Shown one piece after another: positions 38,101 through 53,100 of a DNA stretch of 64,000 bases. The notes under the pieces were generated by a model, which saw only the letters and a program-made list of their open reading frames with translations, was not told the DNA's origin and did no database searches. The first letter of the stretch is position 1. Every line of letters starts with the position of its first letter. The stretch is taken from assembly GCA_964016885.1 (NCBI GenBank), contig OZ024760.1, forward strand, positions 20,770,001-20,834,000. Reading direction: 5' to 3'. The translations under genes and the position numbers were made by a program. This stretch comes from Eledone cirrhosa (Eukaryota).

Positions 38101-41100
38101 GGTATTGTTGGTAGAATAATTGATGGTATTGGTGGTGGTGGTGTTGGTGTCGGTAGAGCCATTGATGGCAGTGGTGGTGGTGGTGGTGTTGGTGTCGGTA
38201 GAATCATTGATGGTATTGGTGGTGGTGGTGGTGGTGGTGTTGGTGTCGTTGGTAGAGGCATTGATGGCAGTAGTGGTGGTGGTGGTGTTGATAGTTTCAT
38301 TAGTAGTAATGTTGTTGGTGGTGGTGGTGGTGGTGATGACATGGGGAAGAAAGAAATGGTGATATATAAATATATGAGGATGATGACGATGGTGGTGGTG
38401 ACGATGGTGATGATGTTGAAATGTAGGGAGAGATGGAGAAGTAGGGATAAGAGGTGGGGAAGGGGCTGGCAGAACATTTTTTTTGGGGGGGGGGGAGAAA
38501 AGATATATATATATATATATAGAGAGAGAGAGAGAGTGTGGGAGGAATATATGGAGCAGGAAGAGAGAGAGAGAGGGTAGATAAGCACAAGAGAGGAGGA
38601 ATATAGTAATGAAAGGGAGGAGAGAAAGAGGGAGGAAAGAAGAGGAAGAAAATGGGAGAGGGATAAGAAAGTCGTGAGGAGAAAGAGAGAAGGGAGGGGA
38701 GAGAGGGGCTAAGGGGGAGATGGGGAGAGGGAAGAGAGGGGGGAGATGGGGAGAGGGAAGAGAGGGGCAGAAAGGGGGAGATGGGGAGAGGGAAGAGAGG
38801 GGCTAAGAGGGAGATGGGGGAGAGGGAAGAGAGGGGCTAAGGGGGAGATGGGGAGAGGGAAGAGAGGGGCAGAAAGGGGGAGATGGGAAGAGGGAAGAGA
38901 GGGGCAGAAAGGGGGAGATGGGGAGAGGGAAGAGAGGGGCAGAAAGGGGGAGATGGGGAGAGGGAAGAGAGGGGCAGAAAGGGGGAGATGGGGAGAGGGA
39001 AGAGAGGGCAGAAAGGGGGAGATGGGGAGAGGGAAGAGAGGGGCAGAAAAGGGGAGATGGGGAGAGGGAAGGGAGGGGCAGAAGGGGGGGGGGGGCAGAA
39101 AGGGGAAGATGGGGAGAGGGAAGAGAGGGCAGAAAGGGGAAGATGGGGAGGGGGAAGATAGGGAGAGGGAAGAGAGGGCAGAAAGGGGGAGATGGGGAGA
39201 GGGAAGAGAGGGCAGAAAGGGGGAGGGGCAGAAAGGGGAAGATGGGGAGAGGGAAGAGAGGGGCAGAAAAGGGGAGATGGGGAGAGGGAAGAGAGGGCAG
39301 AAAGGGGGAGGGGCAGAAAGGGGAAGATGGGGAGAGGGAAGAGAGGGCAGAAAGGGGGAGATGGGGAGAGGGAAGAGAGGGCAAAAAGGGGGAGATGGGG
39401 AGAGGGAAGAGGGGCTAAGGGGGAGATAGGGAAGAGAGGGGCTAAGGGGGAAGATGGGGGAGAGGGAAGAGAGGGGCAGAAAGGGGGAGATGGGAAGAGG
39501 GATCAGAGGGCAGAAAGTGGGGAGAGAGGAGGAGAAGAGAGATAAGAGATAGAGGTAGGGAGGGAGAGAGGAGGAGGTGAGAAACGATTACCTTTCAATC
39601 CAATATATGTGTTCTTTATAGACAGTGAGTGACATACAGTTCTGGGCATTGGACTTGATGATGTGATGGTCACTGCCATTGATAGAGATCCAACCAATCA
39701 GATTTAACTTCCTGTCACACCAATACAGGCGGTCAGTGTCAAAGTCTATAGATAAACCATGTGGTTCCAACAGACTGGTGTTTAGAAGGACTGTCCGCTG
39801 GCTACCGTCCAGTTGAGCTCGTTCAATCACGGGTTGGGTTCCACAGTCAGTCCAGAACATGTAACTACAGAGACAGATAGATACAATGTTATATATATAT
39901 ACATACACACATGTGTGTATGTATATATATATATATATAATGTAGGAGGTGAGTTTTATTGTAGTACAATAAAGCAATGCAGATATCGGATAAGAAGCAC
40001 TCTACAGTTTGTAGGACTGGAGCATACATAATATAAGATCAAAAGATGGTTAAAGGAGTTCCATGTATTTTATTATGCGCATTTCAAAAACAAACATCAT
40101 TATGCAATAATATTTGTGTTTTCATCAGATAAAACAGGAGAACATGATATGAAGGCTAAAAAACACTTGTGGATAGTGCAGTTTTGTTGATTTGCAGTTA
40201 TGTTGATATGTTGATTTAAAACTGCACTATCCACAAGTGTTTTTTAGCCTTCATATCATGTTCTCCTGTTTTATCTGATGAAAACACAAATATTATTGCA
40301 TGATGATGTTTGTTTTTGAAATGCGCATAATAAAATACATGGAACTCCTTTAACCATCTTTTGATCTTATATTATATATATATATATATATATCATAAAA
40401 CATGTCTATAGAATCACCAGATAAAATATAGACATGTTTTATGATATATAGCTCTGATTATTTAATTTATTAACTTTTCATTGAGCCACAAAGTGACCCG
40501 TTGCAAAACACGTATATGTATGTATGTATATATATATATATATATATATATATATATATATATATATATATATATATATATATATGTGTGTATATATATG
40601 CAAAAGTTTTATTTAAAATTGTTGGGTTACAACAAGTAAATATTTTATAACTGATATAAAGCACTCGACAAGTTTTGGAGTAGATATGTGTGTATATATA
40701 TATATATGTGTGTATATATATATATATATATATGTGTGTGTATATATATATATATATATATATGTGTGTATATATATATATAAATTTCAAGTTATCAATA
40801 ATGTAGTGATAATATATCGTCACGTTAGAGATGAAAATGTAAAAAATTTTCTCATTATTTAGCTGGTGTTTGGAACATAACTTAATAAAGGATCTTATAT
40901 AAAATCATGATGAAAGGTTTTCAGATAATTGTAAACATTTTAAACTACACCTGATGTCCCCCTTCCATACACATGCACACATGTGTATATCATGACTCAT
41001 GCACTGTTCATTTTCCTGACGTTTGTACATTACCCTATGTACTATACATGCACTTTTGATGAGTTGTAGTGCACCTGAGCACTGTACACAATATTTTCAT

Positions 41101-50100: not shown

Positions 50101-53100
50101 GTTATCAATAATACAGGGAAAAAAACCACCAGTGTATGGAATCTATAACCTATGAAAGGCAGACTATAGACACGATAATTAAAAATATAAATTAAAGCGT
50201 AAATAAATACCTTTATAACTATATAACACACGTACAAATCCAAAGATATGTTTCACCAAAAAATTGTTGAAAGAAATGTTAGTCTCGGTTCATCAGCGTG
50301 TGTAAGGCTATACATTTCAGACAACACTAAGAGAATTTTACAATTGACTGTCCAGCTACACGTGGGAGAGAGAAGTCACAGCGTGTTTAAGGGCAGTGAA
50401 CCAGTGGCCTCTGAGAGACGAACTGCTAGAAAGGGCAGCCCAAAGCCACCCAGAGAAGTGTGCTCAACCACACAGAGATAGGAAAGACTGTTGTTAGGAG
50501 CGAAATATCACGATAAATTAACGGAGGCATAGGCCGTCGTTATTCCCTGTAAATAATGTGCTCAAAGGGGAAGAGATCCTGAGCCCGTTAAAATATAATA
50601 TGTTGAGAAGGTAACACACCAGAGAGAGATATATAGTGCGTTATCAATAATACAGGGAAAAAACCCACCAGTGTATGGAATCTATTGTTACCTTCTCAAC
50701 ATATTATATTTTAAAGGGCTCAGGATCTCTTCCCCTTTGAGCACATTATTTACAGGGAATAACGACGGCCTATGCCTCCGTTAATTTATCGTGATATATA
50801 TATATATTCATTATTAAGGCTGGTGAGACTCAACAGTTACCTATAATGAAGAATATTTAAACTGTACTTCGATATTGATCATAGATTCTCCTGTCCATCA
50901 GTAACATATACAGTCTGAGACTGGGGAGACCAGACATCAAGGGAGTACTCTATGTATAGGAAGAACAGTGGTTGTAGGGCCTTAGGGGTAAACTTATACT
51001 GCGTGAATCCCATAAAATGATGCCTATAATTGATTTTAATGAGCAGTATCAATCACCAAGATTAAACCTAATTATAATAAATATCTACTATAACATTTTT
51101 TAATTTGTTGGGTTGCCATAAAGGACTTATTTGGAGCTATCTTTAGCACTTATGACCCCTCCTGTAATATCTGCCCTTCTGTTAGATATTATTTTGACAC
51201 CATATGGAGTTATTCCTATGTCTTCCTTGGGCAGGTAACTAGTTAGTGTAGAGTAAGATATATATCCCTTAGCCCCAGTCGTAGGCTAAGGGATATATAT
51301 CTTACTCTACACTATCTTTTATCTGTTATCTTGGCTCCTTTAATTTTCTAATGCATTGTATGGCTTTTAAAATTATTTAAATATATATTTCCTATTCAAC
51401 AATGCTTCAAGCAAACTACAACACCCTCATATATATATATATATATATATATATATTTATTAAAATAACAGATTAAAGTTTAAGCAAAGCATCGCTTCTT
51501 ATATATTTGATATATATTTATCCTTATCGAGCCCTCTTTGGATTTTAGTCTTCAAATTTATTATTATTATTACTATATATATATATATATATATATATAC
51601 ACACACACACCCACACACATAAATGTTCTACCTAGTCGGTAGGATTTATAACTATTTTAGAACGCTGTAATGTTGATGTGAATATACTTTGATGAGATAA
51701 TCACATGAACACACACACACACACACACATATACATATATATATATATATATATACAAATAAAGATTCAGCGAGAATCGCATTTCGGCGGGCAGGAAAAG
51801 CGAAGCGAAACGTAAAAATCAGAAATGATACTGGCAAAGTGCTCAATAGTTAAAAACCAGAGCTAAACAATGTGTTAAGAAGCCATACAATATATATATA
51901 AGCAGAAGGGATATTCAATTTGTTGGTAATTCAACAAATATAAATGTTTATAACTGATTTAGAGCACTCAACATGTTTTCTGGAGTATAATATACAATGA
52001 TATTAAATAAATGGAAACTATATTTATAAAACCATATTTATTCTATTATATATATTTCAAGGGTACCAAAACTTTGGTTCGCTTTCATCAGATAAAATAC
52101 GAAGGCTGTTTTATAAATTTTGACATAACCAAGGAGAATATACCTTAACGGTTCAAATTATCCCTGAAGGTATATTCACCTTGGTTATGTCAAAATTTAT
52201 AAAACACACTTCGTATTTTATCTGATGATAGCGTACCAAAATTTTGGTACCCTTGAAATATATATAATAGAATAAATATGGTTTTATAAATATAGTTTCC
52301 ATTTATTTAATATCATTGTATATATATATCATTTAAATTTGTATATTTAACGCTCTGAGCTTATTGTTCATTGAGCTTTCTTCGTTGAATAACATAATAT
52401 ATATTTTATAGACATTATAAATGTATCTGCTGTTTTATTCACATTTATATAAATAATATTACAAATAAAAAAAAAAGGAAAAGGGAAAAAGAAAAGGAGA
52501 AAAGGGAAAAAAAGAAAAAAAAAACACACCAGCAGTTAATACACACATCTAGGACCACATACAACACACAGCCAGGTAATACACACATCTAGGACCACAT
52601 ACAACACAAGCATATGTATATATATATATATATATATATATATATATATATATATATATATATATATATTCAAACACTCATATATGAAAAAAACAACCTG
52701 TGACAACCCCCCCCCCCCCTCTCTTATTTGAAGAACTATTGTAACGCGAACTGGCGCGAAATTTATTATAATTATTGACAAACCAATCAAATTACTTCTC
52801 GAAAAACCTGGCATTTCGAGCCACTTTTTCCATATAAAACAAGTAACATTCAGAGACCAACCAGATGTGAGAAAAACCACAGACCCTCCATCTCAACTCA
52901 CCTTTTGAAAAGCAGAAGAACTGCGAAACCGGTAAAGGAACCAAATAAATATATATATTTTTAAAAAAAATAAGACTCCAGTTGCATTTTCGATTTCATC
53001 TCTTTTTCTTTATACTTTCACTCGTGTAGGACACCTCGGTTATTTTTTATTTTGTAAAAAAAACCTCACTTTCTAATATATATATATATATATTTATCTT

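Follow-up and report, generated by a model that had tools for sequence, protein, structure and literature searches.

Inverted pseudo-long terminal repeats (pLTRs), one-sided tails, hammerhead ribozymes paired on opposite strands and Hydra elements in a mollusc are already in print for Penelope-like elements (PLEs). Elements of the Hydra clade (Craig et al. 2021, PMC8557442) encode within one open reading frame (ORF) a reverse transcriptase (RT) followed at the C-terminus by a GIY-YIG endonuclease (EN), with RW(K/R/T), DKT and CxCx5C motifs, CxxC and CxH around conserved E and N residues, and no CCHH motif. They target (TA)n and have a pLTR hammerhead, partial tandems, an inverted 5'-truncated copy and a tail at one end, and the supplement includes Hydra-1_Obim, from a mollusc, and notes that Penelope-13_HM has an inverted 5' copy. 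Type I hammerheads with a palindromic loop III were placed in PLE pLTRs, in thousands of copies per genome, by Cervera and de la Pena (2014, PMC4209133), who already noted hammerhead pairs 100-700 bp apart on opposite strands in Schistosoma. In the rotifer Adineta vaga, Penelope elements have head-to-head pLTRs, a one-sided tail, an initiator-like pLTR site and a target duplication around the whole unit (Arkhipova et al. 2013, PMC3846280). For PAc, a Poseidon PLE of Anolis, it was reported in vitro that two internal RT start sites define the tail and that both strands are cut and extended, with a predicted protein dimer and a dispensable hammerhead (Frangieh et al. 2024, PMC11167929). Non-LTR retrozymes (PMC7229834; bioRxiv 10.64898/2026.07.22.740005) are short, non-coding, PLE-related, very numerous and equipped with a type I hammerhead. 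Likenesses to each of these systems were observed, or are proposed, for three long foldback elements in a 64,000-nt stretch of the Eledone cirrhosa genome (assembly GCA_964016885.1, contig OZ024760.1, positions 20,770,001 to 20,834,000 of the forward strand), hereafter the window.

The foldbacks are probably dead-end, head-to-head insertions of the pLTR leader of three Hydra-type families, made by priming at two sites of one RNA, with the copies joined at their far ends. The palindromes that a sequence-only reading had placed at 40028-40375, 48357-48704 and 51990-52323 were recovered by inverted-repeat search and by BLAST. The inverted arms of element 1 (40024-40185/40218-40379) and element 3 (51990-52151/52162-52323) were both 162 nt long, with 99% and 95% identity, respectively, and a 2-nt indel divided the inverted repeat of element 2 into two stretches. 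BLAST alignment of the repeats gave 92.5-96% over 344-362 columns. All three elements were asymmetric, with a tail of about 88-90 bp outside the left arm only and none at the right, and elements 2 and 3 were about 79% alike across arm plus tail.

Exact 31-mers from elements 1, 2 and 3 occurred 6,002, 6,258 and 4,941 times in the 3.0-Gb genome, and controls gave 0 occurrences. Elsewhere in the genome the same arms form the 3' pLTR of elements of 3.7-3.9 kb with a single ORF. Full-length parents were found for family 2 (L033 and L322) and for family 1 (L111, with an uninterrupted ORF of 800 amino acids), and unit lengths were 3,733 and 3,857 bp. Family 3 had ORF pieces of its own, contiguous with family 3 arms and with 56% and 65-71% identity to the other two families, whose proteins were 51% identical to each other. 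Four candidate loci for family-3 tandems were host segmental repeat or unrelated copies, and no family-3 copy with an ORF start was found. Loci L317 and L318 (G000:C4:267.44 Mb) lie in a host tandem repeat of about 3.25 kb with old family-3 foldbacks in each unit.

A fold model of the protein built from 22 sequences (pLDDT 80.5) had telomerase RTs as its best structural matches (Foldseek E 1.4e-7; Z 14.6), and its residues 676-781 aligned to the GIY-YIG catalytic domain of I-TevI (Z 9.4, root-mean-square deviation 2.4, 89/92 aligned). A single-sequence fold (pLDDT 33) was unusable, and sequence searches of Pfam, NCBIfam and PDB with the protein returned no identifying match. Each arm is the pLTR of a different Penelope-like family, encoding a telomerase-like RT with a C-terminal GIY-YIG domain. 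As in EN+ PLEs, these occupy a single ORF, and the pLTRs derive from partial tandems, with an inverted 5' copy and a one-sided tail. The earlier view of the foldbacks as head-to-head pLTR copies of PLEs with dimer-type hammerheads is upheld by these parents, and the arm copies joined to a Penelope RT and GIY-YIG ORF that it called for were found in the 3.7-3.9-kb elements. The families themselves are real and new, of a known kind.

By their motifs, the three families would fit the Hydra clade. Comparison of the family alignment with the published description identified the RWK-type motif (with T or R as its third residue), DKT and CxCx5C, together with CxxC and CxH in the EN, and no CCHH; insertion is in (TA)n, as expected for the clade. 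Hydras are generally under 3 kb in length, which is a tendency rather than a strict criterion, and those listed measure 1.1-3.0 kb, whereas the units here exceed 3 kb because of a long 3' untranslated region. The tail is also longer (about 90 nt versus 30-40), copies number in the tens of thousands, and the hammerhead combines a stem III of 1 bp with a long stem II that has a conserved C-pyrimidine mismatch; the Hydra motifs listed have short stems II and stems III of 3-4 bp (PMC8557442). In family 1, a low-confidence asparagine-rich insert of about 75 residues lies between RT and nuclease (L111, about 3230-3460) and is not found in family 2; asparagine-rich inserts have been described in rotifer PLEs (PMC3846280).

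The ends of the insertions were examined in a family-1 census of 63 loci on contig C1, covering the first 100 of the 6,002 matches, with three B ends taken from separate locus reads. One insertion end lies at site A, the end of the tail, and one at site B, 90 nt upstream of site A. The census comprised 46 insertions with one end of each kind (A+B), 1 with A+A, 0 with B+B, 3 undecided and 13 one-armed, that is, 46 of the 47 resolved two-armed insertions paired a tailed with a tail-less arm. An arm-length script classed 46/70, 14/26 and 15/20 loci as A+B. Insertion ends lay in (TA)n, and a duplication of 13-19 bp with an internal marker base was observed in 7/44, the others being uninformative. 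A hairpin-like signal was present 3' of site B in all three window elements and in a solo tail (4 matches, against 0.11 per shuffle), and in tandem copies of families 1 and 2 it is repeated after site A, giving twin copies 90 nt apart.

Mismatch at diagnostic sites within and between insertions was 0.056/0.163, 0.009/0.284 and 0.106/0.347 in the three families (one pair is entered twice in the lists, which also hold cross-listed pairs of the window; "between" refers to shuffled pairs). The two arms of an insertion derive from the same source. Arms taken from two random RNAs were ruled out, as shared diagnostic bases were far above those of shuffled pairs in all three families. It is likely that each insertion arose from one RNA that was copied twice, with two fixed start points, one copy onto each strand at the cut site. 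A quite unlikely alternative is two-ended priming on two RNAs of the same locus that form a kissing dimer through the palindromic hammerhead loop III. Such a dimer would permit the occasional A+A insertion and differing arms, and loop III was self-complementary in 159 of 174 distinct motif strings (a count partly built into the search patterns), with a self-duplex of -10.5 kcal/mol computed for family 1 on element 1. However, the likeness of arms far exceeds that of random copies, so mixing of RNAs between loci was rare, and tailed arms often stop near site B (6 in family 1, 2 in family 2, and the solo tail of the window), which would fit a block on a shared RNA. In addition, hammerhead core mutants did not change insertion of the Poseidon element in vitro (PMC11167929).

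Among the long family-1 pairs, the tail-less arm was the longer one in 15/18, compared with just 7/16 of the long family-2 pairs of unequal arms. These lengths bear on the self-priming explanation proposed for rotifer PLEs (PMC3846280). Under self-priming the foldbacks would equally be PLE pLTR remnants, but a single complementary DNA or antisense template would fold back and copy itself, which agrees with the variants shared by the arms and with junctions that often show microhomology or perfect symmetry. Self-priming from a tailed copy cannot give a longer tail-less arm, as seen in those 15 family-1 and 7 family-2 pairs, self-priming from a tail-less copy cannot add a tail, and the fixed end at site B, with a signal of its own, is left unexplained. 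We consider this explanation unlikely, and the arm lengths found here argue against self-priming, the explanation given for A. vaga, as the only route.

The inner limits of the arms were also regular. In all three families, arm starts clustered at the A of a pyrimidine-C-A site (position +1) located after a pyrimidine-rich tract, and hardly any lay immediately upstream of +1. For family 1, 36/109 starts lay at -5 to +8 (20 of them exactly at +1) and 2 at -50 to -6; the corresponding figures for family 3 were 10/43 and 0, with 14 more at +9 to +40. Genome-wide, 2,502, 123 and 128 copies carried a non-templated base before +1 (with patterns of unequal stringency). Of the first 100 listed in each family, 49, 51 and 48 by hand count had G in this place where the base was not the templated C. 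At four family-3 loci the extra G was immediately next to a TA-type flank, and at many others it could derive from a partner arm. Initiator-type starts, and the addition of a G opposite a cap, are established knowledge, and we infer from the DNA that +1 would be the start of a capped RNA. The similar arm length of the three elements, which the sequence-only reading had pointed out, is real, and its cause is this pile-up of arms at one fixed 5' stop rather than the propagation of a unit.

In the mechanism proposed here, a dimer of the element protein would make a staggered double nick in a (TA)n target, and both nicked strands would be primed at sites A and B of one RNA. The hairpin signal, repeated 4-8 nt 3' of each of the two start sites, may position one RT each. 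With priming in the 5' pLTR of a transcript from +1 (initiator-like and capped), both RTs would run off at the start of the RNA, after about 170-185 nt from site B and about 260-275 nt from site A, giving the modal foldback of about 340 bp plus tail. Priming in the 3' pLTR would give arms of up to kilobases. Joining of the far ends would rely on microhomology and leave short re-copied fillers. The pLTR would carry the hammerhead as a passenger, with activity predicted for the dimer in tandem elements only; in the foldback it is predicted to be silenced, as transcription of either strand reaches the antisense arm first. Taken together with the in vitro results on PAc, two-ended priming on one RNA is the simplest account. 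In PAc the start sites are inside the ORF and show no strand preference (PMC11167929), whereas those of the present families are 90 nt apart in the leader and both have the repeated signal, with one of each used per insertion.

Several observations weigh against this mechanism. Insertions with two A ends do exist (L114, the second insertion in L147, L426, L333, and 50505-50797 in the window), 13/63 family-1 loci were one-armed, the tail-less arm had no lead in family 2 (7 long pairs versus 9), and the arms of element 3 itself differed at 3/14 diagnostic sites. Gene conversion between arms, or the use of sister transcripts, could likewise produce identical arms, and for PAc the strands did not differ in start site (PMC11167929). 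The pile-up at +1 was weak in family 2, with 4/40 starts at -5 to +8 and 4 at -50 to -6. The extra G could stem from the partner arm in 8/15 cases of family 2 and at least 2/11 of family 1, it may also come from re-copied pieces, and 5/30 of the family-3 matches to it were substitutions in copies that continue upstream.

The spacing of inverted arms ranged from 0.2 to 6 kb, and long pairs held ORF pieces on one or both strands. Junctions of short pairs varied from copy to copy, while a few simple end-to-end junctions recurred. The junction of element 1 had a single occurrence in the genome (one mismatch allowed), against 6,002 copies of the arm. Junction fillers (L244, L246, L133, L134 and 40186-40205 in the window) consisted of repeated short copies of the first bases of the arm, resembling reiterative copying at a template end or a templated insertion of the repair type. 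Telomerase-like repeat addition where the RNA begins is a further candidate for the fillers, and would look the same as such repair.

These results make it very improbable that the hairpin of about 340 bp with two ribozymes is a self-propagating, retrozyme-like unit, as had been suggested. Short foldbacks like those of the window were the commonest single class in family 1 (20/63 loci) and some junctions do recur, but the latter are those expected if both arms stop at +1. The spacing of inverted pairs, which had been proposed as a check, was continuous to 6 kb, and the copy-specific junctions, including the one found once in 3 Gb, do not fit a unit copied whole (the genome-wide junction search was made with element 1 only). 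In either strand, the duplex (-217 to -264 kcal/mol) buries its sole sense ribozyme. Retrozymes are head-to-tail tandem repeats that are cut into circles (PMC7229834; bioRxiv 10.64898/2026.07.22.740005), whereas the foldbacks are head-to-head, and each strand has one sense ribozyme. Among the matches listed, the short unit did not occur in head-to-tail arrays; the short pairs were inverted, and the same-strand neighbours read were mostly tandems of 3.7-3.9 kb.

An assembly artefact, arising from fold-back chimeric reads, has a negligible probability. No contig of the public DNA runs bridged these exact three loci, but contigs of these runs contained many head-to-head joints of family 1 into 40204-40216, so the head-to-head arrangement is not peculiar to this assembly. 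Moreover, the arms differ by substitutions and indels, the asymmetric ends fall at fixed biological sites, and end duplications exist.

A descriptor scan of the window detected exactly the six type I hammerheads that had been named from the sequence, one per arm. Every one of them had both core boxes, a stem I of 8 bp, a long stem II and a palindromic 6-nt loop III. The predicted cuts agreed with those stated earlier, after 40329, 48653 and 52266 on the + strand, with those on the - strand at 40074, 48408 and 52047, and the descriptor had 0 matches when the window was shuffled 30 times. On the - strand, a seventh motif, whose stem III is longer, was found at 50303-50226. The recommended search with covariance models was unproductive, as an Rfam scan gave no hammerhead match at E<=1 and only hairpin noise. 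A degenerate motif pattern had 71,769 occurrences genome-wide, about one per 42 kb.

Stems I and II stayed paired across the 174 distinct motif strings; at many loci, loop III and a portion of stem II had been preset by the search patterns, and counts on these strings therefore lean to the three families. Over all fetched loci, stem II positions 2, 3, 5, 6 and 7 were paired in 163-168/174 strings, with two-sided changes, and position 4 was paired in only 5/174 strings and 1/20 cluster representatives, which establishes the C-pyrimidine mismatch noticed in the window as real and general. The stem I covariation claimed in the same reading (ugu/aug versus uau/aua) amounts to two G-U wobble substitutions without a two-sided change, and true compensation in stem I was seen in distant families only. 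With a conserved core, three helices and covariation, the motif has the properties of a type I hammerhead. Unlike the PLE hammerheads of PMC4209133, it has an 8-bp stem I, a longer stem II with an internal mismatch, and a first stem II pair that is mostly A-U or G-U, not G-C. Distant hammerhead families (L329, L369, L267 and L102) have another stem I sequence and the same position-4 mismatch and long stem II.

Either strand of a foldback carries one sense ribozyme, preceded by its own complement, and folding predictions gave a plain duplex of about 160 bp with the ribozyme buried. Arms commonly beginning at the ribozyme cut were also considered and rejected, as no strong peak was observed there. 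Only 37 family-1 arms had a non-templated base before the predicted cut site, against 2,502 at +1, and 17 of 30 that were read truly begin there. A few symmetric insertions have both arms starting from the predicted cut site (L392/L393, L395, G000:C27:10621700 and C1172:29181). These three or four cases, few and without controls, are a weak hint of cleavage in vivo.

Within the window, element 1 (family 1) begins with its tail at 39940-40027 (- strand), present on this arm only, whose outer end is start site A and abuts (TA)n; in tandem copies of family 1 the tail continues into the ORF leader. The hairpin-like signal lies at 39996-40023 (-), a few nucleotides 3' of start site B, and has its second copy after site A in tandem elements. 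The tailed arm (40028-40185, -) starts at +13 of the putative RNA and includes the hammerhead motif at 40066-40136 (-). It is followed by the junction filler at 40186-40205, made of short re-copied pieces of the arm start and unique in the genome, and by the tail-less arm (40206-40375, +), which starts exactly at the +1 stop, ends at site B in (TA)n and includes the hammerhead motif at 40267-40337 (+). A solo tail of a family-2-like element, running from site A to site B only and 92% identical, lies 230 bp from element 1 (40603-40685, -).

In element 2 (family 2), the tail is at 48269-48356 (-), with the site-B signal at 48351-48329. The tailed arm (48357-48537, -) starts near +10 and has its hammerhead at 48463-48400, and the tail-less arm (48535-48704, +) starts at +22 and has its hammerhead at 48596-48661. 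Element 3 (family 3) has a tail at 51900-51989 (-), with the site-B signal from 51986, a tailed arm at 51990-52163 (-) that starts near +10 (hammerhead 52099-52039) and a tail-less arm at 52167-52323 (+) that starts near +27 (hammerhead 52214-52274).

Other features of the window were also recorded. A fourth related family, with copies in L311, L330 and L024, is represented by a tail-less arm at 50058-50385 (-), in which the seventh hammerhead motif has a long stem III of the monomer type, and by the short A+A insertion at 50505-50797, with two tailed arms, that adjoins this arm. Further inverted repeats were found at 48025-48251, 21551-21896, 40368-40469 and 63440-63858, the first two with scattered relatives among the fetched loci. 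Elements 1-3 are located in introns of an LRP-type gene on the minus strand, which has LDL-receptor class A and B repeats and exons spanning 3081-57559 (-) of the window. Every tailed arm in the window has the same orientation as the gene. Each intronic element would give a double-stranded stretch of about 160 bp in the pre-mRNA, possibly an editing substrate.

Taken as a locus, the three hairpins are fossils of an ordinary sort, like tens of thousands of others. No report of the one-of-each rule, of run-off at +1 or of the repeated signal came up in the literature searched, which did not extend to subscription papers and bioRxiv supplements. We suggest, tentatively, that PLE integration may be unlike LINE-type priming: two RT subunits would load on one RNA at the two copies of the hairpin signal, each primed by one strand of the staggered cut, with the upstream one leading and both able to reach the cap, and the tail would be the distance between the signals. 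The head-to-head product would transcribe the antisense arm first and so disarm its ribozyme, which may be how about 70,000 hammerheads of the long-stem variant could accumulate, many of them in host introns. The families bear on how PLEs, the closest relatives of telomerase, form inverted ends and one-sided tails, and on the role of the hammerhead. They also offer a compact test system: an uninterrupted ORF, a leader of about 350 nt in which both start sites are mapped, a candidate signal that occurs twice, a stop site that is mapped as well, and a simple (TA)n target.

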